IMG/VR virus record: IMGVR_UViG_3300035670_000022
Span: 32,001 to 96,000 of that record
Strand: one strand, 5' to 3'
Length of the DNA: 64,000 nucleotides
From: a virus
A program made the translations under genes and the position numbers. Shown piece by piece: positions 41,440-61,363 of the stretch (its first letter is position 1; each line of letters starts with the position of its first letter). A model generated the notes under the pieces. It had not been told where the DNA came from, made no database searches, and saw nothing but the letters and a program-made list of their open reading frames with translations.

Positions 41440-41470
41440 AGTTTAGACTCCTAATTTGAATATGAATACG

Positions 41471-41492: not shown

Positions 41493-41500
41493 AGTAGCAA

Positions 41501-42271
41501 TTAGCGGCGACGACGACCGCTGGTGACAACTTTAGTCGCGCCACGGTTTACCGCAGGTAAGTCTACTTGAGACTTCCGTGCGGTCGGTGCGCCAGCTTTA
41601 ACGGCGGCTTGTTTGGCAACACCTACGGTACTGCCAATCAATTTACAGTCAGCCCATGCGACATTGGATAAGCCGACGGCGGGTTTTTTGGTCTGCGGAT
41701 TTAACCGCAATACCATGTCAAAGGTGACAATCCCGTCCGGGTTGGCTGCTACCACCCATAACCGCTTCGAAGAATGTTCGGTTGTGTACATGCACCCACG
41801 ACCGAAGTCTTCTTCATACTCTTCCCATAGTTCCGCATAGCGGATCAGGGATTCGAAGTCAGATTGGCTGATAACACCATTGTCAACAGACTCTTGACTG
41901 AATTCGATGGGCAAAGACCGCAGTCCTTTAATCCACTGTTGCCCTTTCGTCAGGGTTTTGCCTGTGGTGGCAGGCTGCATAGACCCATCAGGGTTCATAA
42001 CCCCTGACAGTCGTACTTTGACGGACACTTTTTCGGTGTTTTCGTCGTAGAAGGGGTCTTCTAAGACGATGCGAATCAAGTCGCATGATCCGTCTTCTGG
42101 TGCAAACTGCGAACGAGACATCAGACTTGTGTCAACAAAGAACTGATCGTACGCATCGCGCGCCTGCTCGATAAAACACTCGGGAATCCCCGCCAGTACT
42201 GTTTGCAGATCAGGATCTGCATATAGACCAGCGATGAACATTTCGGTGTTGGCGGCTTTGGCTTCTAACAT
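41501..42271 (-). CDS. Hypothetical protein with basic C-terminal tail
   Basis: 256 aa ending ATKVVTSGRRRR. Confidence 0.75.
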   Translation of the reverse strand: MLEAKAANTEMFIAGLYADPDLQTVLAGIPECFIEQARDAYDQFFVDTSLMSRSQFAPEDGSCDLIRIVLEDPFYDENTEKVSVKVRLSGVMNPDGSMQPATTGKTLTKGQQWIKGLRSLPIEFSQESVDNGVISQSDFESLIRYAELWEEYEEDFGRGCMYTTEHSSKRLWVVAANPDGIVTFDMVLRLNPQTKKPAVGLSNVAWADCKLIGSTVGVAKQAAVKAGAPTARKSQVDLPAVNRGATKVVTSGRRRR

Positions 42272-42300
42272 AGGTATAATCTCCTAATTGTTTATTCATG

Positions 42301-42314
42301 CACTCTTCTCTGTT
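42301..42314 (-). promoter_or_regulatory. Putative phage promoter AACAGAGAAGAGTG (variants at 42373-42386 and 42474-42487)
   Basis: Cluster of three motif copies in a 260-bp gap. Confidence 0.7.
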
Positions 42315-42535
42315 GTTAGACAGGGTAGAGCAGGGCTATTTAGAACCCTAAAGGTTCTTTTTTATTCCCGTTTACTTCTCTCTGTTGTTCGTCTAGGTTG
42401 TTCTAGGTTGTTCTAGGCTTAAGCAGACACGCTCAGGTTGTCTGTCTTTGGGTTTTTAAGGAACGTGGCAACGTACTCCTCTCTGTAAAAAAAGGGGCAT
42501 GCGCCGCTGCATATGCAGGGGCGCATGCCAGCGTC

Positions 42536-43240
42536 CTATTTAGGACGCCGTCCGCTTCCGACCACTTTCGTGGTGGGAGCGGACTTTGCCCCTTTAGGGG
42601 CACCGCCCCCGAAGAGGGCGGAAACGTCCTCTACTGCAACGCAGTCGAGGGCGGCGTGCTCGGAGGGCTCTGCCCCTCCCGAGCCGCAAAAGACTGCATC
42701 ACTGCAGTCGAGGGCTGAGATATACAGCCCGTACTTGCCGCCGGCGGCAAGTTGGAACCGTACGGTTCCTTGCACCCACACAGGGTGCTCCTTTTGCCGA
42801 ACGGCAAAAGACTTCGAGTCTGCTTTAGCCTCGAAGTGATATTTGACCAGTTGGTCAAATATCTCCTCTGCCCCTTCTGGGGCAGAGTCGAACGCCACCT
42901 TGGCGTTCAACGTGAACCATTGGGGTTTACCCCCAAGGTTCGCGTCCTTCTGCGGAAGGACGGATTTTGGGTCGACAGACCCATAATCCACAGCCTTTCC
43001 GTGAAGGCTGATGCACGTAAGTGCAAACGACAGCACGTAAGTGCCGTCGTCGTACAGCGACGCGTCGGTAACGGTAAGCCCGAAGGGCTTCCGTTGACCG
43101 AAGAGATCGGGACCGATCTCTATGCAACTGTGTCCCGTTAGGAGACACAGTTGCATAGGCAGTCCGGAGGACTGCAGGTAGGCAGCGGCTGCTGCTTTGT
43201 CTTCGCCGAAGGTGGAGATAACGGAAGTGACGGTAGTCAT
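42536..43240 (-). CDS. Hypothetical beta-rich protein with basic C-terminal tail
   Basis: 234 aa ending TTKVVGSGRRPK. Confidence 0.75.
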   Translation of the reverse strand: MTTVTSVISTFGEDKAAAAAYLQSSGLPMQLCLLTGHSCIEIGPDLFGQRKPFGLTVTDASLYDDGTYVLSFALTCISLHGKAVDYGSVDPKSVLPQKDANLGGKPQWFTLNAKVAFDSAPEGAEEIFDQLVKYHFEAKADSKSFAVRQKEHPVWVQGTVRFQLAAGGKYGLYISALDCSDAVFCGSGGAEPSEHAALDCVAVEDVSALFGGGAPKGAKSAPTTKVVGSGRRPK

Positions 43241-43277
43241 GACGTTGACGGCTCGTAGAGCCGTAAGAAAGTGCTTG

Positions 43278-43360
43278 CACTTCTCTCTGTTTCTCCGGAC
43301 CCGAAGGGTCTGGAGACTCTCTCGAAGAGAGAGTTAAGAGTGCTTGCACTCTTCTCTGTT
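43278..43360 (-). promoter_or_regulatory. Tandem pair of putative phage promoters (43278-43291 and 43347-43360)
   Basis: Near-identical 22-nt repeats AACAGAGA(AG/GA)AGTGCAAGCACT. Confidence 0.7.
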
Positions 43361-43452: not shown

Positions 43453-46400
43453 TTACGAGAATTGGGTCTCCATCCAATCCAAAGCGATATCTGAAGTGTG
43501 GTAGGAGTCGACTAGCATGCTCCACATTTGCTCTGATGTAAGTTCGGAGTTAAATTCACAGTCTGTTGCAAAGTAGACTAAATCAGCTTTAGGAAAGCGA
43601 CTAGGTCCGACATACAAAGCAGCTTTATGCTGAGCCGGAATAGCTGTTACTTTACCTTTGCTGACGTAATACATATGCAGAACTCCCGGGCGGTTTATAG
43701 TCAAACCCTGGCTTTTCATTAGAGTCATAGCAAAACAAGGGTGCGCCGGGATTTGTCGGAAGGTTCCTATGGGACGACCCGACTTATCTTTAGGCCCTTC
43801 AAAGTCTGCATAGTCTAGAGTGATGACTTGCTTAGTAGTGTCTAGACGCACGTTGATAGAGTTTTTACCTAGTTTGGTAACTACTCCTGTGCTTCCATTA
43901 GCTGCAATAAGTGCACCGCCTCCGTTCTGTATGTTCTTACGAATCATTACAGGCATATCGACGCAGAAAGTCATCTCTTCTTCAATTGGATTAAAGATAG
44001 TGACAAACTCTTGCTTCTCGCCGTCGTAGGCTTTCTTCAGATACCAGTCTCCGAATTTACCTGTGACGTGGGCGCGATACGACTTGTTGTCTGCACCGTT
44101 AGCGATCATCTCAGCGGTCTTGCGGCTATTGTGCCGTTTTACTCCGATATTGTTGAAGTAGATGTGGATAGCATCTTCCGGAGCTTTGGTGGTAACACTA
44201 GCATCAAAGCGGTCTTTGATTAAGTTACCTTTCACGCCGGTTAATTGCAGCCGGTCCATACGTAACAGGTTAAGACAATCTACCCAGGCTTTATCTCCGT
44301 CGGCACGGATATTGTGCTTCAGGTTTATCATGACGAAGTCTCGGCGCTTAACAAAACTGCCGTAGCTGACATTGTTCTTTGCCCCTTTGATGAACACAGG
44401 TTCAAAGAAGAGGGAGCCTTTAACAGGTAAGAACTGCATTGGATCCCCTACTAACAGCCATTGAATGTTGATACCTTCTTCTATCGCAGCATCTTCGATG
44501 ATGTTTAAGAAGCGGTTGTCTACCATGCTGACTTCATCAACGATGACCATGAGTGGGCGTTTACCCAGGTAGTTCTTGGCGCTCTTGAAGAAGCGACTGT
44601 CTTTAACGTCTGACTTGAGTAGGTGGTACTCTTCGTACTCGCTACACTTTTTGCTCTCTGTTTTTTCGAATCCCAATTTGAGACCGAACATTGAGTTAAT
44701 TGTGCCGTCCCCACCGACGTTCATCACTGAAGTACCTGTAGAGCCAACAATGACGTAGGGGAGTTTGAGTAAGTCAAAGATGTGACGCGCTACTTCGACA
44801 CTGTAAGACTTGCCGCCTCCGCCTACACCGGTCAGCATAATATTGCTGCCATTAATAGCTTCAGCTACGACGTCTAACTGTCGAGCAGTCATGGTTTCTA
44901 GAGCGGGTAGGTAAGACTCCTCGTCTATAGTCGCATTGACGTTGGTGATTGCGTCGATAGCGGCTTGTAGAGCCTCGGGCTTACGTTTACGGTCTGCTTC
45001 TATCTCCATTTGGACTTTGGTCTCCTCTTGCTTAGCTTTTTTCTGTGCGTGTTTGCGTACCTTTTTAAGTGAGGGTACGATCTTTTTGCCTTTGCTGTTG
45101 ACAACAGGCTTAACAGATCCTACCTCTACTGTTTTAGGTTCTACAGATTTCTGTTTTTCCGCAACAGGGGTGGGAGTCTCTACTTTAAGAGACACTGCTT
45201 TAGAAAGAGGGATGTCTTCTGGTTCATCCTCGGGGGCATACATCTCAAAATCAGAAGATGTATCTTCGTCCTCGATTTGATCTTCAGACTCTTCAGGCGC
45301 TGTTAATACGTCAGACGCGTCTTCTGTGGTCATAGGTTTATCTTCGACCACTTTTACCGATGACAAAGAGACAAAATTAGAGATAGGGATCTCGTCATCC
45401 ATCTCGTAGTCATCATCAAAGTATACGCCTGTAGACTGATCTTCTTCTGTTTCGGGAACAGCAGCGTCAAAGCTGTCGTCTTGAGTACTTGTACTTTTCT
45501 CTGTTTCTACTAGAACCACAGGAATAGACTTGTATAAGTCGGTGATCTTTGTATGTAGAGTCTCAGGCATATCAGGCACTGTCTCAAGAATCATTAGCAA
45601 CATAGCAGCAACTTGGTTACCAGGATCAGGAGTCGACATAGGCTCTGCTTTGATAGCGGCAGAAGTGGGTTCAATCACTTCCGGCTGGTTGGGAGTAGTT
45701 GTTACCTCAACAGCAGGTTGCTCGTCAGCTGCTTCATCAAGTTCTATTAGAGCAGCTAACAAGTCTTCCTTCTTGCCGTTTAACTTAGGAACGGTATGCC
45801 CCGCGTCACGGTACTCTTTTAGCGCCTCTTTGATATCAGAGTAAGACAGAGAGGAGTACACGTCAGAAACAGAAGAGTCAACATCAGCTTCGACTTCAGC
45901 TTCGACTTCAGCTTCGACTTCAGCTTCATCTACTGGTTTAAGAGCAGGGTGATTAGTGTCGACCATCCAGTTGAGCATCTCAATGATGAGATCGCCGTGG
46001 CAAGGCAAAGGTGCGCAGAAGCAGACTAAGTCTTTTTGCTCTGCGTAGAGGCGGGCTAACTCATTCAGCACAACGCTGTCATTAGCATCTACCTTCTCTT
46101 GTAGCCAAACACGGTACAGTTCATAACACTCTTTCCGTGTGCCGTGTTTTCCAACGACAGCCTTGTTTGCTAGAACGCTACCTTTCTTGCCTTTACCAGG
46201 ACGTCCTATATACTCACCAAATACGCTGTCACCGTTTTTGATGTTTAAGACTTTCATAGTGCAGTGTCCTTCAGAAGATGTAGGAGGCTCAGAGTCTGAT
46301 TTAGGTTTAACCATACGTACAGTGACGTTATAGCGGACACCTTCACCACCTTCGTTGCCTTCATAGCCGTGGCGGGCGTAGCGTTTGTTGCCATAGAAGA

Positions 46401-49400
46401 CAATCAAATCACCATCGCCTACCTCGTATTTCTCTCCGTCTATTTGGAAGATACCGCTCTGGCCGAAGCTGAAAGACACAATAGGAGCATCTACTTCTTC
46501 GTCTTTATCGACGTGAAGGTTCAGCTTCTGTGCGCCTGCATATCGATTAATTAGACAGGTTTGAGCCTCGTACCCATCAAAGATGTCCAGTTGGGCGACT
46601 ATCTTTTCAGCAGTCTCTTTTAGAATGTTAGGCATCTCAACCACAGGCGAACCAGACGGCTGAGTGTTAAGGTATCGACCTTTACCTTTATTCCATACCC
46701 AGAATTGCTGACCAGCACAGGTATAACTGTAGCTCTTGGCTGTAAAGCGCGTCTTCTCACCATCTTCAAAGGTCTCTTCAATGGCTGCTCGTAGCTCATC
46801 ATAGATTCCCTCGTCTTGGCAATAGGATTGCTGAATGTACAGCCCGTCTTCGGTGTATACCGTCAACTCTTCTTTGTCGGACTCGGTGCGAAGCGCGTCT
46901 CGAACTTTCATAAGAAGGACGCCTTGCATGTTCTTACCTTGACGTTTCTTATTCACGCCCCAGAACGTGTCCCAGGGAGAGAGGTGTACAAGGTCGATAT
47001 CTTCTGTTTCTAACAGTTGAGTACGAGCAGGCTCATGGCTGAATTTGCCAAGCAGGACCTCGTACATTACATCGACTTTTACTTGTTCCCAGTCTTTTCG
47101 TAGCCTTACTTTTGCACCTTTAGCCTTTGCCTGTTTACCGTTCATAGCCGCGAACTCTTTAATAAGAGCGTGGCTCGGGTTGAGCACTTTGGCACACTGA
47201 TAGGCTCCCTCTGCTGTTGCATACTCTACGCCTTTGTATGTACAGGGTGCCCCCAGGAAGTTACTAAACTCTTTATACGTAGGCGTATAGGAGTTAAATA
47301 AGATGCAGTCGCCTTCCCAAGTGTCTTTATCTGCCGGATGCTCTTGTTGGGCTTCTACTTCCTGTTGTGCTTTAAGCATAGCCACGTTGATCACAGTGGT
47401 GTTCTTAACACGTTTGATGTTCTTCTTGCTACCAGGAGAAACGCCGTCCCAGATGACGAGACTCTCATCACAGTTACGATGCATCTTTTCATCCCGAGCA
47501 GTGAAGTCACCGTAGACAGCATAGGTTTCAAAGTCACCTACATTGTTGCGGCATCCTTTGCGGGAAGAGTACCAAACGCGCACGTTGGTGACACCTTGCT
47601 CAAAGAGATAGCTTTGTACAAGCATGTCTACACCAGCAGCATCACCAACGTTGAAGTTAAAGCCCTGATCGATATAGCTGTCGATCACATCTAAGGCTTC
47701 TTCAGGTAGACGTTTGATAGAACGGCTGCCAGAGATCACCACTTGGGTGTGATTTACCTCTAACTCTTCCGTAGACGTATCCTCTTCAGTGTCAGAAGAG
47801 TCAACAGATTCACCGCCGTCTCCATCGTCGTTAGGCTCATCGTCGGTCGGCTCTACACCGCCGTCAGAGTCATCTTCATCAGAGTCGTCTTCTTCTTCTT
47901 CGGTAATACCATCGTTAAAGTTATGGATCACAGAGAAGAAGTTGTCTTTACTCTCTTCGACAGAGTGGATCTCTTTCAAGAAGAAGTTTAGGTCGGCATC
48001 AGACCACTCGAGAGTGCTGATTTGAGTGTAGTCGTACATCTCTTTACCGAGAACTTCGTCTAGCTGAGAGAGAGACATTAGCGGAACGTTGGTTTGAAGC
48101 ACTTTAGCCCCTGTGGGGTGAGACTTAAGTGCGTTTAGCCACGCTATACTTTCTTGATAGATGACAGTATCCCCAAAGTAGAAGTTACCGCGGCCACCTT
48201 GGAAGATCGTATAAAGCAAGTAGGAAATCCCGTAGGTGGGGGTCTCTTTACCTCGCTTAACTACGTAATAGTCTTGCAGGAGGTGCATAGCAATTGTTAC
48301 CTCTTCCGCTAATTCGCAGTTAGCGCCGAGTTCAGCCAACGTTTCTTCTACTTTGTCCTCTAGGGCACGCTCTAAACGCATTTCTCCCAGCAGGGTTTCT
48401 AGAACTGTGCAGTTAGCAACAGCAACCTCATCGGTAACATTGCATTCTCGCAGGTTCAGAACCATGAGGTCGATCGTCTTGGTGCGAGGCATATCCAGAC
48501 GGGTGCTACGTAGACGATCATAGGCTTCTGCTACATCAAAGCGAATAAACTCGTCATCCCAGTTGGATAGGATTCCATGTAGCTCTTGAGTAACTTCAGC
48601 ATTGGCAAAGTCTTTAATCTTAACGGACTGTTTGCTGCAGCCGTCGTAGATAGATTTACCAAACATGATCGGCTTTAAGAATCGTTCCCAGAGAGATACA
48701 CCGCCGGGGCTGAATCCGCCGAGCATAATCTCGTACACTTCTGCCAAGACCAGCATGAGTTTGTTGATCTGAGTTTGACGATACTTGTCTAGCTCTAAAG
48801 GCACGAATGCACTTAGACCTTCAACACCGTCTTCACCAAACAAGTCCAACTTATCTAACTCGCCGATGATGCTAACCGCAAGCATACCGAGCATGTATGC
48901 AGCGTACATAACACCAACACCGACGTGCTGAATGCTGTATGCCAGGAAGTTGTATTTGACTAGATCTGAGCTGTTGATCATAGCCTTCTCTGGCAGTGCT
49001 TCTGCTAACTTGTTGATAACTACAGATGCATCTTTGTAAGACTTGATGGTGTAGTGGTCAGCAGCGTAATCCCCGCATGTGGGAGAGAACATGTCCATAC
49101 CTATAGCAGCGGAGCGCAGTTCACGAACCTTTTCATAGGTGGTGATGTGCTTAAGGCTCAGGTGCTTACAGTGAGTGATAAAGTGGTTATCACCATCATC
49201 GTCACCACCGTCTAGGTTGACAGACATAGCACTGACGCCGAATTGTACGGGGCTAATCTCGTACGCAAGAAGAGTATTGTCTTGAACCTCATCAGCAAAA
49301 GGTACACGTCGTTGTCCAAGATAGACCTCGACAGTTTCTTTACCGGTTTCGGTCTCGACTTCAACTTTCTCCCATACCTCTTCGATTAAACGAACCCGTT

Positions 49401-52400
49401 CAATCGGACCCATAGGCATAGGCGCACGGTTACCGCACGTAATTACACCTTCGGCTACAGACTGGCGGTCTAGAGGAATACCGCTACGTAGACACTCTTG
49501 ATATGGAGAGGAGACGACGTTGGTTTCTAGAATCCAGACTTCTCCTACAGGAATAGCAGGGTGACCGATACGCTTCGCACCGACTGCTTTATCGCCAGAG
49601 AAATACTTGCGGGAGTTCTTAGATGTAGCTAGAGAGTTAAGCACACCGCCGACCTGGTTAAGGGCGATCTGTTGCTTTTCGCTACCACCATTGATACACG
49701 GGATAAGTATTTCGAAGAAGAACATGGAGACGAAGTCCAAGTTATCATCGCTCTTGCGAGTCAGCTTAGAAAAAGCCAGCATGGCAGGGAGCCACATGGA
49801 CACTTTACCTTCTCCGGTTTCAAAGACGAAGACCATATCCTGAGTTGCTTCGGCAACCAGGCGGAAGAGGTTGTCTTGATGCGGATCAATCTGTCCAGGC
49901 TCAATACCGACTTTGCGTAGACGCTCATCCATAAGATCCTGACACTCGTTGCTGGTGTCATCTCCACCAAAGCAGATGCCTTCTTCATCAACGATGATGG
50001 ACACTACTTTGAGATTAGGATTAATGGTATTCCCAGCATTGAACGCGGCTAGCGCTTTAGCACGGTACAGCGCTTCTTTACCGCAGGACACCATACGACG
50101 CTGCTCAGCCAATACATCTTCGTCGTCCCCAGCTACAATGCTCAAGGACATGATATAAGGCAACAACTGAACGGAGGTCGTTACGGCTTCTGCTACCGTA
50201 GAAGACTCGAATAGCTCTACGTTGTAGAGTTGAGCTTCAGGTACGGAGAGGTACATTACGCCACGTTGTGCGACTTCTACCACTTTTCCGTCTTTAAGAA
50301 CAAAGGCGAGAATGTTGCTTTCCCACTCAATTTCTTTCTGCTCAGAGACTACGTAGAGGTTATCTCCTAAGTTGGCTAATTCAGGTAGGTACTCTAAATA
50401 GTTCTCTACGTGATACCACGCTGCCTTCCGTGCTTTTTCGTTCTCTTCGGTGTCAGGAAGTAATCCGGCGGCTACTTTCTCTTGGTAGAGGTCATACATA
50501 ACACGACCCATACCTTCAGCCTGTATCCAGTGAAGCCAGCGGGCTTGACCGAAGATGCTGTCGAAGTACTTATACATCTCATCATAGATACCAGCAGCAA
50601 CAGCAGCGGGCTCGATGATAAGCACGGGTTTGCCGTCGACCAGATTCTCGTGTCCTACCAACTGACGGTTGATGTCAGAGATATATTCACGAAGGGTCTT
50701 AACCACGTCTGTTTCTACTTCGTTGTAGAACGCAGTGTTGGCAATTATGAAGCACATCGCATAGCCCAAGTCGAGCTTAAGGCTATCTTGCAGGTGTAGT
50801 CCGTGTACAGTGATCTCGTCCGAGTTAAGGTCAGAGTTTAGATCATTGAACAAGATAGCAGGCGTAGCCGTAAAGAACTGCGACTTGTTAACACTACGAG
50901 ACTTCATATCAAACTCGCGGCGTTTGATGAAGTACTCGATGCTGAGATACTCAGTGCTGTTATCCATACCGACAACAACGCGCCAGCGGAAGTAGGTTAA
51001 CTGACCCTCTACACGGTGTTGATGGTAGATGGGAATCGTTCCGTGTACGCCGAAGAGGATCTCTTTACCTGTTCCGTTAACGAGCACCTCATCTTGCGGA
51101 GTGACATACATCCAGCCGTCTTCGCTCTCTACACTGTCCCAGGTGTTTTCGATCACACCGGTAACATTAGTTTGAGTAAAGTCGAACGGAGAACCGTCTA
51201 CTATATCAAACGTGTTACGGACAATTAGAATGCGTTGATCCGGGTTTGCTTCCGGTTTGTCTTTCTGTTCACCCAAGAACGCGGACATACCAGGCAGGTT
51301 AACGTGGCTCGGCGCATAGGCAGTCTTATCTAACCAGCCGTAGGTGGCATACTTCTGGTCGATAAGTTTAGCCGCAGAAGGCTGCTCGTCTTTGACGCTC
51401 TCAGCTTGAGCCATCCACAAAGACACCCGCTTCAGGAGTTTCTTCGCCTTCAACGAGTTGACGATTACTTTTCCTGCTTCGATTTCGCAGCCAAAGTTGC
51501 TGACGATCTTAGCGAACAGGTTCGGTGCATGCTTGCTGACCAAGTCTAGATTGACGTGACCCAAGGCACCAGCAACAAACTGTCCTTTGGTGTGGTGGAA
51601 GTCTAACCCATACTGCTCATGGGCCATTTCCATCACAATGTCCATCACTTCAGCAATTTCGATAGAGTCATCAAAGACAGCTGCAGTTTCGATCATTTGA
51701 AACTCTTCGTCTATGTCTGCCTCTACACCGCTGTAGCGTTCAGGTAGGACTTTAGCAGCCTTACCCTCTAGAGCAACCCACTTCCCATTACTGTTCAGCG
51801 GTGTGCGCTCTTTGAACATCACGGTGGAGAAGGTGTTGATGAGCAAGTGGTGTGCAGCACCGTTTTGGTCTAACACTCGGTCCGTAGTCATCTTAAAGAT
51901 GTTGCCCATCTTTTGCAGACATGACTTCACATTCTCTAATGTGGTAGAGAAAATGCCGGCGCTGCCAGACCAGTTAGAGAGGATAGGCAAGTACACGAGC
52001 CAGATGAAGTACATAAACATACTCAGGCTGGTGACTAACTTGATTTCTACCTCGTAGGGGCTGCCCTTAGGATCGGCTTTCTTCTCTTCTTTTGTCTTTT
52101 TACGTCCGTTGACAACAAGACAGCTATTGAAAGCACGACCACGCCAGTCATAGACAGTACCGTCGTCATCGAAGTAGAAAGCAGCAGCGCCGTCTATCTT
52201 AAGCGCTTTCATGCCATCTATCTCTACGAAGTCCAAGACTCCTTTGATATCGACAGCCTTACGGTTACGGCTCCGCTTTGTCTTCTTACCAGCGACTTCC
52301 ATCATGTCTTGAATGATGGTGATAACACCTTCAATCTCAGACAGTTGCCAGTCGTAGTCTAAGATTGGCATGTCGATGGTTGAGCAGGCATACTTGTCCC

Positions 52401-55400
52401 GCTCAGAGCAGAACCCACGTAAGTAGTAGGCTACTGCGTAAGCAGCTTTTTGAGCAGCACTACATTTCGTAGGGGGCTCTTGTCCCCGGAACAGCTCTTC
52501 AAAGACTGCCGTTTCGTTCAGCATCATGTCGTTTACGACTTCTTCTACTGTATAGAAGTCCTCGCTACGATTTCCGCTGGTCGGGTGATTTAACGCCTCG
52601 TACAGACTTTGTAGCTCTTCAGCGTAACCAGCTAGAACTTTGGGTTCTGCTTTAGCCGCAGGAGGTGTCGGAGGAGTAGAAGTGACAGGAGGAGTAGCGG
52701 GCGGAGCAGCTATTTTAGAAGGAGTAGAAGTAGCTACTTTAGAAGGAGTAGACTTTGTCACTTCCGCTTTAGACTTCACGCGACGACGACCACTCTTAGG
52801 TAGAGAAGTAGTAGTCTTAGCAGAGCGCTCTAAGAACGTGAAGTAGTTGTTATCGCTCCGGGGAGTTTCGAAGTCGATTAACTCTTCTACTACATCGCAC
52901 GGAACGAAGTAGGCTTCAATCCGGTCGCAGTACGGACGGTATTGTCCTTGACTGAGAACACCGTTCTCGTCTGGACGACGATTATCCGTCAGAATATCTA
53001 CTCGTCCGACGAGAAGCAAATAGTATTGCTCCACTTCTAACCCAGGGATGCCTCCATGTTCGCTCTGCAGGTTATCTAACGAGTTGTGGACAACGATCGT
53101 TTGCCCATGTTTTTCTAGAGCGGAAACAAACCGTGTATTTCCTGTGTACACGGCTTTACGGATGATGTTCCGAACGGAAGAAGCGGTAGCGCCTGCTTCC
53201 GCACGACCTGCGACTTTGTCTTTAAGGTCGTGCTCGTTATTAACCAACGACTCGAAGTTCATATGGTGCGACACCTTGTCGTTAAACACCACATTTTCGA
53301 TGTTGGTGTAGGCAGCATCGCGGAACTGCCAACTTGCCTTCTTGGCGTTGGCGATCGGAGCATACAAACGAGCCGGGGTCGCTCCGATAGTAGAAGCAGT
53401 CCAACCTTCTTTAGCTTCTTGTTTGTAGTCGAAGCCTAAGAAGTTGCTGATGGGCAGCACCCGATGTTTGCTGTCGTCCGCCGCAGCATATAACTCGGCA
53501 TAGTGCGGTTTTGCTTTCGGCACAGGGTTAAAGTGTGCGTTAGCGTTACACCGCTGCTCTCCGTAGCGACAGAGGACTACATAGAGAGGATCGCTCTCTT
53601 GAATGGGAGCTGCGTCTACGTGCATTAATGTGAACGCAGGGATGCAACCCATCTCTTCAGGAGACTTAGTAAAGTGCATAGGAGCACCTACTTTTATCTC
53701 CATGTTTTTGTTTGCGCTATTACTGGTGCGACGCTTCATTGTTTGCTCCTTATTAATGGTAGCCAGTCCTATTTCTAGGGGTGTTACGCCTAGTTCGCTG
53801 ACAATGTCAGACCATTTAGATCCGTTTGTCAGCAAGGACCGAATGTTGCTTGCTGTCTCAGCGTCTACCAAGTCAGCTGGGTCAAAATGACCAGCACGGT
53901 AGACCTCCAGCAAATAGCTGGCGACAGTATCATCCTTGGTCTCACTCTTCGCCTCCTTACGGTAGGTAGATGCCAAGTCTGCTAGCATGTCCTCTAGCTT
54001 TTCTTCTGTTTTCAAGACACGTGTCCAGATGTCAATCACGATCTTGTGACGATGACTTAGCTGATTTTGTTCAGCTTTTGGTTTTTCTGTCTTTTTACTC
54101 TTCTCTGTTTTTGCTACAGGCTGTTTGTTAGGCACCCCGTAGTTGAGAGCCACTTCTAGGGAAGTAACTCCCAATTCCGTCTCTAGGTCTTTATAGGCCA
54201 CTCCTTCTGCCTTCAGATCTTGAATCTGCTCGTGTATCTCTGTAGATACATAGGCAGAGCAGTCTACCAACCCAGCGTCGTATGCTTTCTTTAGATACCC
54301 GACGATGGTTGAGTATGCCGCCTCACTTTTGTTAATTGCTCGGTAGCGTCGGACTAAGGAGTCCAACTTCTGCTGCAGATCGACGTTTTTAGCGTCTATC
54401 TTCTCCCACAGTTCAGCTATCTGCTGAATTGATGATGGAGTTTTCTGTGCGGACGTGGTCGGAGTTCCTCGTTTTTTGGCATACTTACTCATTGGACGCG
54501 GAGTTTTGCTCCGCTTGAAGACCATAGTTGCCTCCGGTACACCCTCTGCCGATGCAGCACATCGTGCCTCGGCGAGAGCCATAAACTCGGCCGGTACGGC
54601 CACGGGTTCAGATTCTGAACCGTTCAGAATCTCAGCCATGATGGCTGTCCCTGCGGCGTAGGCGGCTTCTGCCTTTTGTTCTTCCGTCTTATTGGCTAGG
54701 TAGACGGTTTTGTCTACCTTTTTGATGTTGCCAATCATCTTCCGACCTTCCGCCGCCCGGCGACGGTTTTGGATAGCGAGAGGCAACTCCGCCTCCTCTT
54801 GGGCGCGAAGGGCCCGTTGGCGACGGACTACAGAAGCCGGGATGGGGGCCTCGGTGCCGTTCGCCAACCAAATGGCGTTGTTACCTGCACGGAGGGCAGC
54901 GGACTTAGCGGCTTTGGTGATGACCGCATACTTAGCCGCCCGCTCGGATGCAATGTAAGCAGCCAGGAGTTTAGCCTCCGCCCGACGTTGGGCTTTGGCT
55001 AGTTGCTTCTCATACCCGGACTTAGTCTGGGGTTTGAGGTTACGGCGTTGTACCGCTTTGTTGCGACGTTGACGTTTAACCCGCTGGGTGCGGGCAATTG
55101 ATTGATTCACAGTCATTGATTTACGGACACGACGACGTGCCCGGGTAGAGGTGGTACCAACAGTGGTAGCGATGTCGGCAATGACATCAGCTACGGCGAC
55201 CATTACGGTCACGTTGGCATAGGCAAAAGTGCCCACACCGCCTGCACGTTTTTGTGCAGTGCCTTTGCGGGGGGCAGTGAGACGGAGAACCGCGTCCAAG
55301 GTGAATGCGGCACGGTTAGCCGTGCGGCGCTCAGTGTAGTGAGCAGAGATGACATCAGAGATGTCATTGGCTACGGCACCAGCGAATGCCATAGTAGCAG

Positions 55401-56001
55401 CGGTAGTGAGGGTAGCAGGGGCAAAGCGTACAACTTTGTGCGCAGTGTAGACACGGGGAGCACCCGTGGGGGTGCTGACGGTGTGGGTAGGGGCAACCCA
55501 GGAGGGTGCCGGAGTGGTGAATACACCTTTGAATCCGGGGGCAGCTTGCTTAGGAGCAGCTTTGGGAGCCCACACTACACGAGTGTTCCAAGCTGCTGCT
55601 TGGGCTGCCATAGGGTCAGCAACACCCCATCCTTTGATCTCCGCCATGCGGAGGTCAATATCACCAGCAGCGGTGATAGCGTCAGCGGTAGCTACAGCGG
55701 CAGCTACAGAAGAGGAAGCAGGAGCCTTGTAGCCAGTCCAGGTGCGGACTACATCCACCTTCTTGCCTTTCTTCTGCACGTGTACGTGCACTTTCCCGTA
55801 GTAGGAAAGGAACTCTTGGCGGGGTAGGCGGGCACCTACCGCAGAGTTCTTAATTACAGCGCCGGCGTTCCAGCGTTGGCTGGAACGGCTCCAGCTGTTA
55901 GTGTGTACGGTGCGCGGGGAGACCTCACGGACAGCTTGCTGAATCGAGCGAGCGAAGAAAGAGATAACGGAAACGGAAACGGACATTTTGAAGTTAGACA
56001 T
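43453..56001 (-). CDS. 4182-aa polyvalent protein: 2x HTH, putative single-chain two-barrel RNA polymerase, SLOG, NADAR, AlkB-like dioxygenase, DUF4326 and Pif1-like SF1 helicase
   Basis: DMKSRSVNK (~50881-50910), NRAP (49420-49431), GGDDDGD (49189-49209). ISGSR..VGDAAGVD; FSNF..TAEGAYQ..WG..GKNMQG.LLM.VR; LINRY..HVD..HG..RYNVTVR; YIGRP..LVCFCAPLPCHGD; GVGGGGKS, DEVSM, GDPMQF, KSQGLT. Confidence 0.85.
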   Translation of the reverse strand: MSNFKMSVSVSVISFFARSIQQAVREVSPRTVHTNSWSRSSQRWNAGAVIKNSAVGARLPRQEFLSYYGKVHVHVQKKGKKVDVVRTWTGYKAPASSSVAAAVATADAITAAGDIDLRMAEIKGWGVADPMAAQAAAWNTRVVWAPKAAPKQAAPGFKGVFTTPAPSWVAPTHTVSTPTGAPRVYTAHKVVRFAPATLTTAATMAFAGAVANDISDVISAHYTERRTANRAAFTLDAVLRLTAPRKGTAQKRAGGVGTFAYANVTVMVAVADVIADIATTVGTTSTRARRRVRKSMTVNQSIARTQRVKRQRRNKAVQRRNLKPQTKSGYEKQLAKAQRRAEAKLLAAYIASERAAKYAVITKAAKSAALRAGNNAIWLANGTEAPIPASVVRRQRALRAQEEAELPLAIQNRRRAAEGRKMIGNIKKVDKTVYLANKTEEQKAEAAYAAGTAIMAEILNGSESEPVAVPAEFMALAEARCAASAEGVPEATMVFKRSKTPRPMSKYAKKRGTPTTSAQKTPSSIQQIAELWEKIDAKNVDLQQKLDSLVRRYRAINKSEAAYSTIVGYLKKAYDAGLVDCSAYVSTEIHEQIQDLKAEGVAYKDLETELGVTSLEVALNYGVPNKQPVAKTEKSKKTEKPKAEQNQLSHRHKIVIDIWTRVLKTEEKLEDMLADLASTYRKEAKSETKDDTVASYLLEVYRAGHFDPADLVDAETASNIRSLLTNGSKWSDIVSELGVTPLEIGLATINKEQTMKRRTSNSANKNMEIKVGAPMHFTKSPEEMGCIPAFTLMHVDAAPIQESDPLYVVLCRYGEQRCNANAHFNPVPKAKPHYAELYAAADDSKHRVLPISNFLGFDYKQEAKEGWTASTIGATPARLYAPIANAKKASWQFRDAAYTNIENVVFNDKVSHHMNFESLVNNEHDLKDKVAGRAEAGATASSVRNIIRKAVYTGNTRFVSALEKHGQTIVVHNSLDNLQSEHGGIPGLEVEQYYLLLVGRVDILTDNRRPDENGVLSQGQYRPYCDRIEAYFVPCDVVEELIDFETPRSDNNYFTFLERSAKTTTSLPKSGRRRVKSKAEVTKSTPSKVATSTPSKIAAPPATPPVTSTPPTPPAAKAEPKVLAGYAEELQSLYEALNHPTSGNRSEDFYTVEEVVNDMMLNETAVFEELFRGQEPPTKCSAAQKAAYAVAYYLRGFCSERDKYACSTIDMPILDYDWQLSEIEGVITIIQDMMEVAGKKTKRSRNRKAVDIKGVLDFVEIDGMKALKIDGAAAFYFDDDGTVYDWRGRAFNSCLVVNGRKKTKEEKKADPKGSPYEVEIKLVTSLSMFMYFIWLVYLPILSNWSGSAGIFSTTLENVKSCLQKMGNIFKMTTDRVLDQNGAAHHLLINTFSTVMFKERTPLNSNGKWVALEGKAAKVLPERYSGVEADIDEEFQMIETAAVFDDSIEIAEVMDIVMEMAHEQYGLDFHHTKGQFVAGALGHVNLDLVSKHAPNLFAKIVSNFGCEIEAGKVIVNSLKAKKLLKRVSLWMAQAESVKDEQPSAAKLIDQKYATYGWLDKTAYAPSHVNLPGMSAFLGEQKDKPEANPDQRILIVRNTFDIVDGSPFDFTQTNVTGVIENTWDSVESEDGWMYVTPQDEVLVNGTGKEILFGVHGTIPIYHQHRVEGQLTYFRWRVVVGMDNSTEYLSIEYFIKRREFDMKSRSVNKSQFFTATPAILFNDLNSDLNSDEITVHGLHLQDSLKLDLGYAMCFIIANTAFYNEVETDVVKTLREYISDINRQLVGHENLVDGKPVLIIEPAAVAAGIYDEMYKYFDSIFGQARWLHWIQAEGMGRVMYDLYQEKVAAGLLPDTEENEKARKAAWYHVENYLEYLPELANLGDNLYVVSEQKEIEWESNILAFVLKDGKVVEVAQRGVMYLSVPEAQLYNVELFESSTVAEAVTTSVQLLPYIMSLSIVAGDDEDVLAEQRRMVSCGKEALYRAKALAAFNAGNTINPNLKVVSIIVDEEGICFGGDDTSNECQDLMDERLRKVGIEPGQIDPHQDNLFRLVAEATQDMVFVFETGEGKVSMWLPAMLAFSKLTRKSDDNLDFVSMFFFEILIPCINGGSEKQQIALNQVGGVLNSLATSKNSRKYFSGDKAVGAKRIGHPAIPVGEVWILETNVVSSPYQECLRSGIPLDRQSVAEGVITCGNRAPMPMGPIERVRLIEEVWEKVEVETETGKETVEVYLGQRRVPFADEVQDNTLLAYEISPVQFGVSAMSVNLDGGDDDGDNHFITHCKHLSLKHITTYEKVRELRSAAIGMDMFSPTCGDYAADHYTIKSYKDASVVINKLAEALPEKAMINSSDLVKYNFLAYSIQHVGVGVMYAAYMLGMLAVSIIGELDKLDLFGEDGVEGLSAFVPLELDKYRQTQINKLMLVLAEVYEIMLGGFSPGGVSLWERFLKPIMFGKSIYDGCSKQSVKIKDFANAEVTQELHGILSNWDDEFIRFDVAEAYDRLRSTRLDMPRTKTIDLMVLNLRECNVTDEVAVANCTVLETLLGEMRLERALEDKVEETLAELGANCELAEEVTIAMHLLQDYYVVKRGKETPTYGISYLLYTIFQGGRGNFYFGDTVIYQESIAWLNALKSHPTGAKVLQTNVPLMSLSQLDEVLGKEMYDYTQISTLEWSDADLNFFLKEIHSVEESKDNFFSVIHNFNDGITEEEEDDSDEDDSDGGVEPTDDEPNDDGDGGESVDSSDTEEDTSTEELEVNHTQVVISGSRSIKRLPEEALDVIDSYIDQGFNFNVGDAAGVDMLVQSYLFEQGVTNVRVWYSSRKGCRNNVGDFETYAVYGDFTARDEKMHRNCDESLVIWDGVSPGSKKNIKRVKNTTVINVAMLKAQQEVEAQQEHPADKDTWEGDCILFNSYTPTYKEFSNFLGAPCTYKGVEYATAEGAYQCAKVLNPSHALIKEFAAMNGKQAKAKGAKVRLRKDWEQVKVDVMYEVLLGKFSHEPARTQLLETEDIDLVHLSPWDTFWGVNKKRQGKNMQGVLLMKVRDALRTESDKEELTVYTEDGLYIQQSYCQDEGIYDELRAAIEETFEDGEKTRFTAKSYSYTCAGQQFWVWNKGKGRYLNTQPSGSPVVEMPNILKETAEKIVAQLDIFDGYEAQTCLINRYAGAQKLNLHVDKDEEVDAPIVSFSFGQSGIFQIDGEKYEVGDGDLIVFYGNKRYARHGYEGNEGGEGVRYNVTVRMVKPKSDSEPPTSSEGHCTMKVLNIKNGDSVFGEYIGRPGKGKKGSVLANKAVVGKHGTRKECYELYRVWLQEKVDANDSVVLNELARLYAEQKDLVCFCAPLPCHGDLIIEMLNWMVDTNHPALKPVDEAEVEAEVEAEVEADVDSSVSDVYSSLSYSDIKEALKEYRDAGHTVPKLNGKKEDLLAALIELDEAADEQPAVEVTTTPNQPEVIEPTSAAIKAEPMSTPDPGNQVAAMLLMILETVPDMPETLHTKITDLYKSIPVVLVETEKSTSTQDDSFDAAVPETEEDQSTGVYFDDDYEMDDEIPISNFVSLSSVKVVEDKPMTTEDASDVLTAPEESEDQIEDEDTSSDFEMYAPEDEPEDIPLSKAVSLKVETPTPVAEKQKSVEPKTVEVGSVKPVVNSKGKKIVPSLKKVRKHAQKKAKQEETKVQMEIEADRKRKPEALQAAIDAITNVNATIDEESYLPALETMTARQLDVVAEAINGSNIMLTGVGGGGKSYSVEVARHIFDLLKLPYVIVGSTGTSVMNVGGDGTINSMFGLKLGFEKTESKKCSEYEEYHLLKSDVKDSRFFKSAKNYLGKRPLMVIVDEVSMVDNRFLNIIEDAAIEEGINIQWLLVGDPMQFLPVKGSLFFEPVFIKGAKNNVSYGSFVKRRDFVMINLKHNIRADGDKAWVDCLNLLRMDRLQLTGVKGNLIKDRFDASVTTKAPEDAIHIYFNNIGVKRHNSRKTAEMIANGADNKSYRAHVTGKFGDWYLKKAYDGEKQEFVTIFNPIEEEMTFCVDMPVMIRKNIQNGGGALIAANGSTGVVTKLGKNSINVRLDTTKQVITLDYADFEGPKDKSGRPIGTFRQIPAHPCFAMTLMKSQGLTINRPGVLHMYYVSKGKVTAIPAQHKAALYVGPSRFPKADLVYFATDCEFNSELTSEQMWSMLVDSYHTSDIALDWMETQFS
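54096..54109 (-). promoter_or_regulatory. Intragenic copy of the putative phage promoter
   Basis: Exact AACAGAGAAGAGTA inside the giant ORF, upstream of TAAGGAG-N6-ATG at 53739. Confidence 0.55.
54613..54629. promoter_or_regulatory. 17-bp palindrome TTCTGAACnGTTCAGAA, copy 3 (intragenic)
   Basis: Arms extend to 10 bp (54611-54631). Confidence 0.5.
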
Positions 56002-56113
56002 AATAAATGCGCCCCTAATATGGCGCTTTAAGGTTTTTATTTAGACACTTCACTTTTGAGAGGCTGTGAGAACCTACAACGACTAATACGCCTCGTTGCT
56101 GGCAAGACAGCTT

Positions 56114-56347: not shown

Positions 56348-56515
56348 AGTTGTTTCTCCAACTAGAGGTTTACATGTAGTTTTGAGTGGTTCTACAAACC
56401 AATCGGGACTAATAGCCCACCCGACTGGGCACAACAAAAGGGGACCCGCCTAAGCGAGACCCCTAGATAGACATAGCAAGCTATAATCTACTTATTCAAT
56501 TTAGAGGTAATAAGT

Positions 56516-57255: not shown

Positions 57256-57561
57256 TTATTGAAAGTACCGCATGCTGCGTGCGGTAGGAGAAGGATTCAC
57301 CTTCTCCATCACATCCCACGCCCAGGTGGGGTTGCATACCCCCCAGACCCAGACGTGATTGATTCCGCCAGTGATGGCGGTGTATGCGCCTTTTAGGAGG
57401 GCAAGGGCCACTTCGTCTATGTGGTGCCCGGTGGACTCCCGCACGGAGCGGGCGACGCCGTAGCAAATAGCGTCGATGAAGTACAAAGCGATCAGCCCGA
57501 GGCAGACGCCCCAGGCTGTTAACAGAATCGTATCGAGAACAAACATCGTGAAATCAGACAT
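57256..57561 (-). CDS. Small membrane protein
   Basis: N-terminal TM helix; preceded by the repeated 42-nt leader. Confidence 0.65.
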   Translation of the reverse strand: MSDFTMFVLDTILLTAWGVCLGLIALYFIDAICYGVARSVRESTGHHIDEVALALLKGAYTAITGGINHVWVWGVCNPTWAWDVMEKVNPSPTARSMRYFQ

Positions 57562-57566
57562 TTAAT

Positions 57567-57636
57567 TAGAGGCCGGGGTAAAGAAGAGTCCGGATGTTCC
57601 TCGTAAAAAGGTGCCCCCTCTATATAGAGGGGGCAC
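57567..57636 (-). repeat. Hairpin/T-run/leader module (26-bp perfect palindrome plus a 42-nt leader repeated at 59868-59909)
   Basis: GTGCCCCCTCTATATAGAGGGGGCAC at 57611-57636; leader 38/42 identical to the second copy. Confidence 0.75.
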
Positions 57637-57809
57637 GGCTGTTATACCTAGGACTGAAGCAAGTCAGTCCTAGGGAACTCAGCCTACCTTTAAGAAGTGT
57701 TTGACCTGTTTCGAGAAACATTAAAGTTGATCACAGCCGTAGGTAAAGAATTGGTGGCTGTCCTCCTGTAAAAGGTGCCCCTATGCTTGTTAGGCACAGG
57801 GGCAATACT

Positions 57810-59183: not shown

Positions 59184-59336
59184 GATTACTTACGCCGGTT
59201 CAGATACAGCACCGGGAACTCTCCACTGATTTGACGTGTGTGTCGACACGACCTACTTAGATTTAGGTAGCTGAGCCATCTACCACCCTTTTACTCAGCC
59301 GGGCCTGGCCTATCCTCATACCCGTTGTTGGGTCGT

Positions 59337-59363
59337 AAAAAAAGCCCCTCTATATAGAGGGGC
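59337..59363 (-). terminator. Terminator-like palindrome GCCCCTCTATATAGAGGGGC plus T-run
   Basis: 20-bp perfect palindrome followed by T7 on the minus strand. Confidence 0.65.
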
Positions 59364-59414
59364 AGTCATATAGGTGCAGCTTATTTACCCTCCCCTGCAC
59401 TGGGAGACCAAGCA

Positions 59415-59587: not shown

Positions 59588-59620
59588 AAAAAAAGCCCCT
59601 ACACCTAGTGGTGTAGGGGC
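59588..59620 (-). terminator. Terminator-like hairpin GCCCCTACAC/GTGTAGGGGC plus T-run
   Basis: Same stem recurs at ~61062-61090. Confidence 0.65.
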
Positions 59621-59640
59621 AAAGAGTGTACGAGTAGCTT

Positions 59641-59862
59641 CTATTCAGCTACCCGTACGAGGACTGCCAAGCAGTCCTCACGCTTGGGCCACCCGAAGGT
59701 GTGGGGGGTTGTGCATACCCACCCTTCTCCCAGACCGGGGAAAGAGGGGTCGCAGGTACCCCCCGTTTGCCCCCCGCAGGGGGCGTAGGCCCGGCCGATC
59801 GCCCGCCGGGCGATGGTGGTTGCGGGGGTGGTGGAAGCGGAGGTGTTGTTAGCGGTAGACAT
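59641..59862 (-). CDS. Small Cys-containing protein
   Basis: 73 aa with 4 Cys; preceded by the repeated leader. Confidence 0.55.
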   Translation of the reverse strand: MSTANNTSASTTPATTIARRAIGRAYAPCGGQTGGTCDPSFPGLGEGWVCTTPHTFGWPKREDCLAVLVRVAE

Positions 59863-59958
59863 GGTAATAGAGGCCGGGGTAAAGAAGTATCCGGTTGTTC
59901 CTCATAAAAGGGGGCCCCTATACAGGGGGTTCCTGTATAGGGGGACGTGTTAGGTGGG

Positions 59959-60537: not shown

Positions 60538-60616
60538 TTGATATGCACTGTCACAGGGCATGGATTAGCTCGGCTGTGATGGCATAAAAAAGGCCCCCTA
60601 GAAGGGGGCTATATTT

Positions 60617-61223: not shown

Positions 61224-61363
61224 TGACCAACCAATCGACCAGTGACCAACCAATCGACCAGTGACCAACCAACCAATCGACCAGTGACCAACCAACCAAC
61301 CAACCAATCGACCAACCAATCGACCAACCAATCGACCAGTAACCAACTTAGCCAATTAACCAA
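61224..61363. repeat. Tandem repeat of GACCAA(CCAA)nTC(GACCAGT) units
   Basis: About 5-6 imperfect units in a divergent intergenic region. Confidence 0.85.

Follow-up and report, generated by a model that had tools for sequence, protein, structure and literature searches.

The window, a 64,000-nt stretch from the 156-kb genome of an uncultured phage (source: metagenomes only), carries on its minus strand a giant ORF of 4182 aa (P0001), about 12.5 kb long, whose full-length homologues (P0002-P0005) share its Met1 and architecture. Its N-terminal part comprises a conserved N-terminal region, a basic stretch and two HTH_40 repeats; the remainder holds a putative two-barrel RNA polymerase (RNAP) core (NRAP ... 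DDDGD), NADAR, an AlkB-like 2OG-Fe(II) oxygenase, DUF4326 and a PIF1/Dda-like helicase (PHROG Dda-like, aa 3496-4138). The two HTH repeats described in the first-pass annotation are real: Pfam places HTH_40 (PF14493) in two stretches within aa 430-754 at 34.6 bits, against a gathering cut-off of 27 bits. The features discussed below, in window coordinates, are:

56040-56100, minus strand: class C element 5' of Met1, a conserved hairpin (10-bp stem, loop GGCGTATTAG) with CTCAAAAGT
43453-56001, minus strand: giant ORF
54613-54629, no strand assigned: 17-nt palindrome TTCTGAACGGTTCAGAA inside the giant ORF (aa 458-463, EILNGSE), a putative operator
54136-54324, minus strand: HTH_40 repeat 1 (about aa 560-622), from alignment and Pfam; window phage and L001 only
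54096-54109, minus strand: class A internal copy 1, exact 14-mer (extended match aaAACAGAGAAGAGTAaaaaga), in the linker between the two HTH_40 repeats
53752-53964, minus strand: HTH_40 repeat 2 (about aa 680-750), from alignment and Pfam (best stretch aa 687-726)
53746-53752, minus strand: Shine-Dalgarno (SD) sequence TAAGGAG, 6 nt 5' of the ATG at 53739
53737-53739, minus strand: ATG in frame (Met755), at which a 3428-aa isoform is predicted to begin
45492-45505, minus strand: class A internal copy 2, one mismatch (AACAGAGAAAAGTAca), located in the acidic linker that precedes the helicase
45007-45009, minus strand: in-frame ATG, Met3665, candidate start of a 518-aa helicase-only product, with GAGGAG 12 nt upstream
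43347-43360, minus strand: first intergenic class A copy 3' of the giant gene, for comparison
42301, 41210, 40739, 38994, 37897, 37842, 36717, 5656 and 62327: further class A copies

The polymerase identity of the giant protein is putative, being drawn from short motifs only: NRAPMP (aa 2191-2196) and D-G-G-D-D-D-G-D (aa 2264-2271; DFDGD in relatives), a catalytic DxDGD loop preceded by NRxP as in two-barrel (double-psi beta-barrel) RNA polymerases. Within the family N2191, R2192, A2193, P2194, D2264, D2267, D2269, G2270 and D2271 are invariant. A PDB profile search with the giant protein returned helicase and AlkB hits and no RNA polymerase; an AlphaFold model of aa 1640-2480 (pLDDT 38.8) was too poor for a fold search, and hhalign against gp64 of the Thermus phage P23-45 aligned 16 columns around DxDGD with a probability of 0.7%. 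A second giant RNAP-like ORF lies at 99630-111599 of the genome.

The main promoter-like element of the window phage, here termed class A, is AACAGAGAAGAGTA(aaaga or ca), a contiguous block of about 18 nt, similar in this respect to promoters read by phage-encoded polymerases. Of 30 matches in the genome, 17 are exact and 26 fall on the minus strand; the window has 18 at two or fewer mismatches, with 0.92 expected. Most copies are intergenic, 22-50 nt 5' of a start codon on the same strand, and many are directly 3' of a hairpin and T-run resembling a terminator (immediately so at 37897, 38994, 40739, 41210 and 42474); between these terminators and the next start codon, class A is the only conserved element. 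Analogous terminator-motif-gene modules, with diverged motifs, are found in the related phages L002, L003 and L004. Exact antisense copies also occur within plus-strand genes, at 7924 and at genome position 139812, with no gene nearby for them to drive. From this distribution we infer that class A is a promoter. A k-mer search brought up no second genome-wide motif beside class A; two further classes, B (at about 57636 and 59892) and C, were recognised solely through comparison with relatives. In genome order the at least three motif classes run class B, class C, giant gene, class A.

Two copies of this element lie in sense orientation inside the giant gene itself. At 54096-54109 the exact AACAGAGAAGAGTA reported earlier is present on the sense strand of the ORF, where it encodes K-T-E-K-S-K, and the one-mismatch copy reported ahead of the helicase is likewise there, as AACAGAGAAAAGTA at 45492-45505 (aa 3499-3503). 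Codons for KTEKS alone do not account for the first: given the KTEKSK peptide, the exact motif has a probability of 0.0058, and 200 synonymous shuffles of all coding sequences regenerated it in sense orientation not once. All three TEKS peptides in the proteome are encoded by motif DNA. On a position weight matrix (PWM) internal copy 1 scores 27.6, with a training median of 29.4 and a synonymous-shuffle maximum of 21.2; together with copy 2, at 26.8, it makes up the top two hits of the giant ORF, both within the range of real sites and above all 100 shuffles. The peptide-conditional probability, the shuffles, the motif-encoded TEKS peptides and the PWM scores therefore all point to selection of the internal copies at the DNA level. 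In the protein, T632 and K636 stand out as invariant residues within a linker that is otherwise not conserved.

Downstream of copy 1, TAAGGAG-N6-ATG does lie in frame at Met755, as the first-pass annotation had it, and would open a 3428-aa product; the distance of about 360 nt given there is 356 nt from motif end to ATG. With an SD pairing energy of -8.5 kcal/mol, Met755 ranks among the strongest 5% of gene starts in this genome (median -3.0 kcal/mol); it is also one of only two in-frame sites in 4182 codons that combine a six-mer SD with a start codon. It is located 30 aa ahead of the conserved core. Three other in-frame start-type codons have an SD at least as strong: TTG406, ATG493 and ATG3665. 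Nearer in-frame starts 3' of copy 1 (M672 and L676 in the window phage, V488 in L002, M483 in L003) are not conserved, and for that reason are not preferred. The leader after this first site is 350-470 nt, roughly ten times that of the intergenic class A promoters.

The comparative evidence at the DNA level comes from four genomes, those of the window phage and of L001, L002 and L003, whose proteins are 30-49% identical. Their promoter-like motifs have diverged (CACAGAGAAGA in L001, AACAAAGGGTAAAGGA in L002, AACAAAGAATAAAGAATGA in L003), and at the internal site column 785 of the alignment carries each phage's own version (aa 632 of P0001, 662 of P0002, 474 of P0004, 457 of P0005), and each relative's own motif recurs in the linker before the helicase. 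In the PWM scoring, which covered the window phage, L002 and L003, the internal sites are the top two sense hits of each giant ORF, above all shuffles; the L001 consensus derives from two intergenic sites only. The start site is kept as well. An in-frame AAGGAG(G)-N5-6-ATG/GTG stands just before the conserved core in all four phages (M755 in P0001, V802 with GTG in P0002, V627 with GTG in P0004, M619 in P0005), each ORF of more than 3300 codons having only 2-7 such sites, and the joint probability of the synonymous choices at SD and start is about 9e-5. P0003, represented by protein only, has NKEKAM at the place of Met755, with AAGGAG predicted ahead of its M, and D-T-E-G-K-K where its own class A motif is predicted to lie. 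The four genomes give an unusually clean comparative signal, the internal promoter copies changing in step with each phage's consensus while ribosome-binding site and start are silently conserved. The four-phage comparison strongly supports reading the two elements as an internal promoter and an internal ribosome-binding site with its ATG, and the 3428-aa isoform they would produce is a well-supported prediction.

For the second site the most probable start is Met3665, 482 nt from the motif in the window phage, with a strong SD (-9.1 kcal/mol) at a long spacing of 12 nt. The equivalent in-frame ATG follows the motif after 36 nt in L002, 48 nt in L003 and 305 nt in L001, where it reads AAGGAG-N6-ATG; the 36 and 48 nt of L002 and L003 are the usual distance from promoter to start. 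A 518-aa helicase product from this site is likely on these grounds.

The start of the full-length protein is differently equipped. It had been described as lacking both the motif and a clear SD, and in the window phage that description stands: class A is absent upstream of Met1 (56001), and the SD is a weak AGGGG (-5.6 kcal/mol) within a small hairpin. What does not stand is a start devoid of signals, as the N-terminus is conserved in all relatives, three relatives have strong SDs at Met1, and the highly conserved class C hairpin element precedes it. Class C is likely to be the control element of the full-length gene, and the presence upstream of a different conserved element in place of class A makes two control regimes plausible.

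Taken with the placement of the motifs, these features suggest that the giant gene is probably a nested expression unit, in which internal class A promoters and in-frame starts would give rise to shorter products. Both sense copies sit in linkers that tolerate them, and each is then followed by an in-frame SD and start at a domain boundary. Early in infection, the hairpin-containing class C element would drive a full-length mRNA, which ribosomes would read from Met1. Activity of the class A polymerase would then add a transcription start near 54095, with ribosomes loading after the 356-nt leader at TAAGGAG-N6-ATG (53739); the stretch that codes for HTH_40 repeat 2 in the long form would be 5' leader in this transcript. 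The resulting 3428-aa form would keep the polymerase core, NADAR, AlkB-like domain, DUF4326 and helicase, whereas the conserved N-terminus would be missing from it along with the basic stretch and the two HTH_40 repeats. Near 45491 a second transcription start would lead to an in-frame ATG, most likely Met3665 (45009), and so to the 518-aa helicase. The reading predicts two internal transcription starts and two shorter proteins; if it is true, the split between long and short forms would indicate which part of the protein does promoter or DNA targeting, and giant ORFs of this kind should not be annotated as single-product genes.

Which enzyme would read class A is a separate matter. We infer its assignment to either giant enzyme from gene order, and the chance that the polymerase encoded by the giant gene is itself the class A enzyme seems to us slightly under even. 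If it is, the first loop would be self-reinforcing, making more core in a form that differs from the founding molecule. The fuller version of this idea, which we regard as possible but rather doubtful, is a natural "autogene": the giant protein would be a non-virion RNAP firing class A promoters in its own gene, with a layout conserved in the group. The first full-length molecules, made from class C, would then amplify an HTH-less core and a free helicase, amounting to an inherent, self-reinforcing changeover from the founding form to the working ones, and the layout would be conserved across a previously undescribed phage group in which two giant single-chain RNAPs go with three promoter classes. 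An enzyme that reads its own internal promoter in this way would constitute a natural self-amplifying polymerase circuit, in an unstudied phage group apparently running a multi-polymerase cascade.

Several other explanations for the internal signals can be set against nested expression. The internal promoters may be real and yet serve only to re-load polymerase along the 12.5-kb gene and the downstream operon, offsetting transcript decay or premature termination, with no shorter protein of any importance; AAGGAG and ATG/GTG would then be the trace of peptide conservation (K-E-x-x-M/V) or of ribosomes pausing at the domain boundary. The long leader after the first site (353-468 nt) fits this, and elsewhere (window -86) a class A sense copy inside an upstream gene serves the downstream one; most genes of the phage have weak SDs (median -3.0 kcal/mol), so that SD strength is no general requirement. 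Against it, the start-type codon (ATG, or the minority valine codon GTG) and the AAG-GAG choices are kept in all four phages (9e-5), at the very edge of the conserved core; a promoter is already available immediately 3' of the giant gene (43347), and in L002 and L003 the second site is only 36-48 nt 5' of an in-frame ATG. We consider re-loading alone unlikely. A role for the motif as some other cis element, such as the site of a phage DNA- or RNA-binding protein (perhaps HTH_40), an RNA processing site or a 5'-UTR translation enhancer, seems to us improbable. Before genes it is always on the mRNA-sense strand, which makes an RNA-level role formally possible, and the exact antisense copies without a nearby gene to drive are in keeping with a function other than that of a promoter; against it stand the position of the motif as sole conserved element between terminators and following start codons, the same modules with diverged motifs in related phages, the contiguous block of about 18 nt like those of phage-polymerase promoters, and the precedent of P23-45, where two phage RNAPs go with two motifs mapped by transcription start site (TSS) sequencing (PMC10770324).

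Both internal sites are at domain borders, as would be expected if they were disused fossils of a fusion between an N-terminal gene, a polymerase gene and a helicase gene, and in the more distant relative L004 a 374-aa gene of its own does lie immediately ahead of a giant gene that is shorter, at 2962 aa. Disused signals, though, would not follow each phage's current promoter consensus, nor would synonymous positions hold across lineages at 30% protein identity, and the upstream ORF of L004 has no similarity to the N-terminus; we give this explanation very little weight. The same dissimilarity to the P0001 N-terminus is why the 374-aa ORF was rejected as evidence for a natural split at Met755. 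Chance, or a by-product of codon use in a K/T/E/S-rich linker, hardly merits consideration: the linker is indeed of low complexity and TEK-like peptides recur in relatives, but motif length and genome size lead one to expect about 0.001 exact copies, the observed state is reached in none of the synonymous shuffles, and co-variation across phages would be left unexplained. The synonymous shuffles and the PWM comparison refute it.

Nested expression of the kind favoured here has parallels. The transposase and inhibitor of Tn5 (Tnp/Inh) form an in-frame nested pair in which the short form has its own internal promoter and lacks the DNA-binding N-terminus, and the long and short Rpn "genes within genes" are reportedly a pair of the same kind. 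Tn5 and, on the nested reading, the giant gene have in common an internal promoter and an in-frame start leading to an N-terminally shortened protein, which in the giant gene would be without the HTH repeats. Unlike Tn5, the giant gene uses a phage-specific contiguous motif and not a host sigma-70 promoter, and at 12.5 kb it holds two nested units; its short form is not known to act antagonistically. Among phages, in-frame nested genes include T7 gene 4A/4B, phiX174 A/A* and T4 gene 49, the last with a class-specific internal promoter. These resemble the giant gene in carrying an internal SD and start within the gene of a replication or transcription enzyme, and in a shorter isoform, predicted for the giant gene, that keeps the catalytic part; the giant gene differs in its co-varying promoters of phage-RNAP type, in a long leader whose sequence the long form translates, and in possible autoregulation.

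Other giant phage polymerases offer a further comparison. N4 gp50 and crAss-like gp66 are giant virion RNAPs, single polypeptides with a core flanked by large accessory regions, and N4 early promoters are hairpins, in which they resemble the class C hairpin before the giant gene. No homology of N4 gp50 or crAss-like gp66 to the giant protein was found, and we know of no description of nested isoforms for either; nested genes with internal promoters are a known device that, to our knowledge, has not been described for giant phage RNA polymerases. Another analogue in organisation may be P23-45, which has virion and non-virion two-barrel RNAPs and two promoter motifs mapped by TSS sequencing: one RNAP, fused to a giant structural protein, transcribes the pre-early genes including the gene for the second, which then uses a different motif (PMC10770324). 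The window phage is similar in that its genome has a pair of giant RNAP-like ORFs and an ordered series of at least three motif classes, and dissimilar in sequence, where only the DxDGD loop shows detectable similarity; moreover, P23-45 gp64, at 616 aa, carries no fused enzymes, and neither internal promoters nor isoforms are reported for that phage (PMC10770324).

The family has about six known members. The GenBank phage collection gave no near and no protein-level match, an IMG/VR scan for relatives gave none, and in JGI metagenomes the N-terminal alignment retrieved nothing and the core alignment only L004; a search for shorter or fragment homologues of the giant protein found none, and an exhaustive representative search added P0005 alone. 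None of the RNA runs searched contained the window sequence. DNA contigs from four runs are either identical to the window or do not cover 53706-53839 and 53974-54241. The contig ends seen at 54093 and 54630 reflect only cross-matching with further copies of the motif and the palindrome.

The giant gene of the window is very probably a nested unit, whose products include a 3428-aa form and, probably, the helicase by itself, since an internal promoter and an internal start within it are, on the sequence comparisons below, very probably functional, conserved signals. Nested in-frame products of the same kind are known from Tn5 (Tnp/Inh), T4 (gene 49) and T7 (4A/4B). The long and short Rpn products, 'genes within genes', belong here too (bioRxiv 10.1101/2023.05.02.539157). 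What would be new here is its occurrence in a giant polymerase gene, together with co-variation of the promoter and a possible self-activating loop, all of it directly testable.

The window, bases 32001-96000, is part of one phage-like contig, 155,913 bp long, from subsurface metagenomes; the gene and its recognizable domains are:

43453-56001, minus strand: giant ORF, encoding a 4182-aa protein (P0001)
aa 2906-3038: NADAR domain
aa 3089-3229: AlkB-like 2OG-Fe(II) oxygenase domain
aa 3261-3341: DUF4326 domain
aa 3496-4138: PIF1/Dda-like helicase

These clear domains are confined to the C-terminal third; two HTH_40 repeats (within aa 430-754) are the only family matches in the first 2700 aa. 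The putative RNA polymerase (RNAP) identity rests on NRAP and DxDGD motifs invariant in the protein family (relatives read DFDGD); it drew no usable support from PDB profile searches, from an AlphaFold model (pLDDT 38.8) or from hhalign against P23-45 gp64.

Class A, the promoter-like motif reported in the first-pass annotation, is by its distribution a genome-wide promoter-like element: the window has 18 matches with at most two mismatches vs 0.92 expected, and the whole genome 30 (17 exact, 26 on the minus strand). Copies are mostly intergenic, 22-50 nt 5' of a start codon on the same strand, with a hairpin and T-run immediately preceding those at 37897, 38994, 40739, 41210 and 42474, and the conserved block is longer than the 14-mer (aAACAGAGAAGAGTA, then aaaga or ca). 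Class A promoters at window 36717-43360 (minus strand) form two subclasses, GTAaaaga sites leading into A-rich leaders without a Shine-Dalgarno (SD) sequence and GTAca(n)g sites into strong AGGAG sites, which may mark two translation regimes. Exact copies also lie antisense at window 7924-7937 (minus strand), within plus-strand ORF 6382-13272, and at genome 139812-139825, within another large plus-strand gene, both genes being probably structural; there is one back-to-back divergent pair (genome 7913/7954), and transcription from such antisense and divergent copies would enter late genes in the antisense direction.

Within the giant gene, three signals reported in the first-pass annotation are correctly placed:

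54096-54109: exact class A copy, AACAGAGAAGAGTA (site 1)
45492-45505: class A copy with one mismatch (site 2)
53746-53752: TAAGGAG, followed after a 6-nt spacer by an in-frame ATG at 53739 (Met755), giving the 3428-aa product

Site 1 fits the extended class A form (aaa upstream, aaaaagaca downstream) and has a PWM score of 27.6; the 20 copies that lie elsewhere than in the giant gene, chiefly between genes, have a median of 29.4. Site 2 scores 26.8, and the third-best sense score in the ORF is only 5.1. The KTEKS codons alone might have accounted for site 1, but this explanation fails: the probability of the exact motif given the peptide K-T-E-K-S-K and the genome's codon usage is 0.0058, 200 synonymous shuffles of every CDS never recreated it in the sense orientation, and the TEKS peptides of the proteome are motif-encoded in 3 of 3 cases, which argues that the peptide exists owing to the DNA signal and not the reverse.

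Further evidence comes from related phages. Only a handful of homologues of the giant protein are known, and the DNA comparison of internal sites covers the window phage and loci L001-L003.

Giant proteins, class A equivalents, internal sites (aa) and shared internal starts
Window phage: P0001; site 1 at 632, site 2 at 3499; TAAGGAG-N6-ATG, M755
L001: P0002, 4038 aa; CACAGAGAAGA; site 1 at 662, site 2 at 3422; TAAGGAGG-N5-GTG, V802
L002: P0004, 3336 aa; AACAAAGGGTAAAGGA; site 1 at 474, site 2 at 2791; CAAGGAG-N6-GTG, V627
L003: P0005, 3301 aa; AACAAAGAATAAAGAATGA; site 1 at 457, site 2 at 2751; CAAGGAGG-N5-ATG, M619
L004: more distant homologue, 2962 aa; GAAACAAAGCA(A/G)A
P0003, 3693 aa: compared as protein only

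Terminator-motif-gene modules lie downstream of the giant gene in each relative with DNA, the motif itself having diverged. Scanned with its own phage's motif, each giant ORF of the window phage and L001-L003 has two sense matches in the same two places: site 1, on alignment column 785 in all four, in the linker immediately before the last HTH repeat, and site 2 in the pre-helicase linker. Conservation in related phages had been suggested as a check, and their giant ORFs do keep their own motif versions at the site 1 column. The L002 sites are one-mismatch copies of a 16-mer (25.8 and 24.7, vs a training median of 25.2), those of L002 and L003 outscore 100 of 100 synonymous shuffles, and the L001 ORF has three internal sites with GCAGACACAGAG common to all. 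T632 and K636, the sole invariant residues of the site 1 linker, fit a DNA motif in which ACA and AAG are conserved. The internal sites track each phage's current promoter consensus, a pattern that, on these alignments, neither shared ancestry nor protein constraint can explain. The L004 giant ORF has two sense copies of its own motif, at aa 52 and aa 147. In that locus the giant gene (6080-14968) comes directly after an ORF (4912-6036) of 374 aa whose tail is basic. The giant protein of L004 has DFDGD, and its first 900 aa cannot be aligned to P0001, so the family varies in its N-terminal architecture.

Under a strict rule (six-mer SD core, spacing 4-10, in-frame ATG, GTG or TTG), each giant ORF of more than 3300 codons has only 2-7 candidate starts, one of which is common to 4 of 4 phages, immediately before the conserved core GCIPAF and 353-468 nt downstream of site 1. 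The choice of AAG-GAG and GTG there has a joint probability of 9e-5 given the peptides; P0003 reads NKEKAM at this position. In the window phage by itself Met755 does not stand out: the SD energies of three further in-frame start-type codons are equal or stronger, so the case for it rests on conservation.

In-frame starts downstream of site 2 in four phages make a helicase-only product of ~518 aa likely. An in-frame ATG follows site 2 by 36 nt in L002 and by 48 nt in L003, the normal promoter-to-start spacing, coding K-K-S-M-V ~50 aa ahead of the helicase motifs. The L001 start, AAGGAG-N6-ATG, comes after 305 nt, and that of the window phage, GAGGAG-N12-ATG (Met3665, at 45009), after 482 nt and an acidic insertion. 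The product is better supported for L002 and L003 than for the window phage.

The start at 56001 had been described as having neither the motif nor a clear SD. Upstream of Met1 in the window phage there is indeed no class A motif, and its SD, strong in L001-L003, is weak (-5.6 kcal/mol) and inside a small hairpin; Met1 and a conserved N-terminus are nevertheless common to P0001-P0005, so this start is real. It is preceded by the ~55-nt class C element, GCCAGYAACGAGGCGTATTAGTCGTTRTAGGTT...CTCAAAAGT:

56040-56100 and 56380-56425, minus strand: class C
L001 800-860, L002 7600-7680 and L003 5090-5150: class C in relatives

The two window copies are the only ones in the 156-kb genome, one preceding the giant gene and the other a small membrane-protein gene just upstream. 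Class C is nearly identical in L001, recognizable in L002 and L003, and kept across relatives at 30-49% protein identity; it forms a hairpin with a 10-bp stem (compensatory changes in 5 of 10 pairs) and a conserved loop GGCGTATTAG, then CTCAAAAGT, and may act either as a hairpin promoter like those of N4 or as an RNA element in the 5'-UTR.

A third motif, class B (AACANCCGG...CTTCTTTACCCCGG), follows terminators at 57.5-60.6 kb:

57467-57809, 59184-59380, 59588-59958 and 60562-60616, minus strand: terminator, then AACA(N)CCGG..CTTCTTTACCCCGG

Confined to a few genes on the upstream side of the giant gene, class B has the same position in L002, L003 and, in a diverged form, L004. The pattern suggests pre-early genes under another polymerase. 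Along the minus strand, class B genes come first, the giant gene and the class C elements second and class A genes last, and a second giant RNAP-like ORF (genome 99630-111599) adjoins structural genes. In P23-45, the virion RNAP transcribes the gene of the non-virion RNAP, which uses a different motif (PMC10770324); the motif order and second giant ORF resemble that scheme. By analogy the 4182-aa protein would read class A, and if so the internal copies would close the positive loop that the first-pass annotation proposed. A third giant reading frame (at least 3533 codons; genome 145313-155911, plus strand, beyond the window) runs off the contig end, so the assembly was cut within a gene.

Two further elements were seen. 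The 17-nt palindrome TTCTGAACSGTTCAGAA has six genome copies with at most one mismatch (window 54613-54629; genome 2267, 25124, 64411, 70154 and 123270), an extra non-palindromic one-mismatch copy at genome 16587, and a counterpart at L001 2306-2322; the giant-ORF copy (peptide EILNGSE) is identical in L001, within a 23-nt identical run. Two copies precede class A promoters by 35-45 nt. A dimeric regulator probably binds the palindrome as its operator. A tandem array of six GGTCGATTGGTTGGT-type units, which may be an origin or iteron-like region, occupies window 61226-61337; it lies in a 96-aa ORF of doubtful status, downstream from the class A site at 62327.
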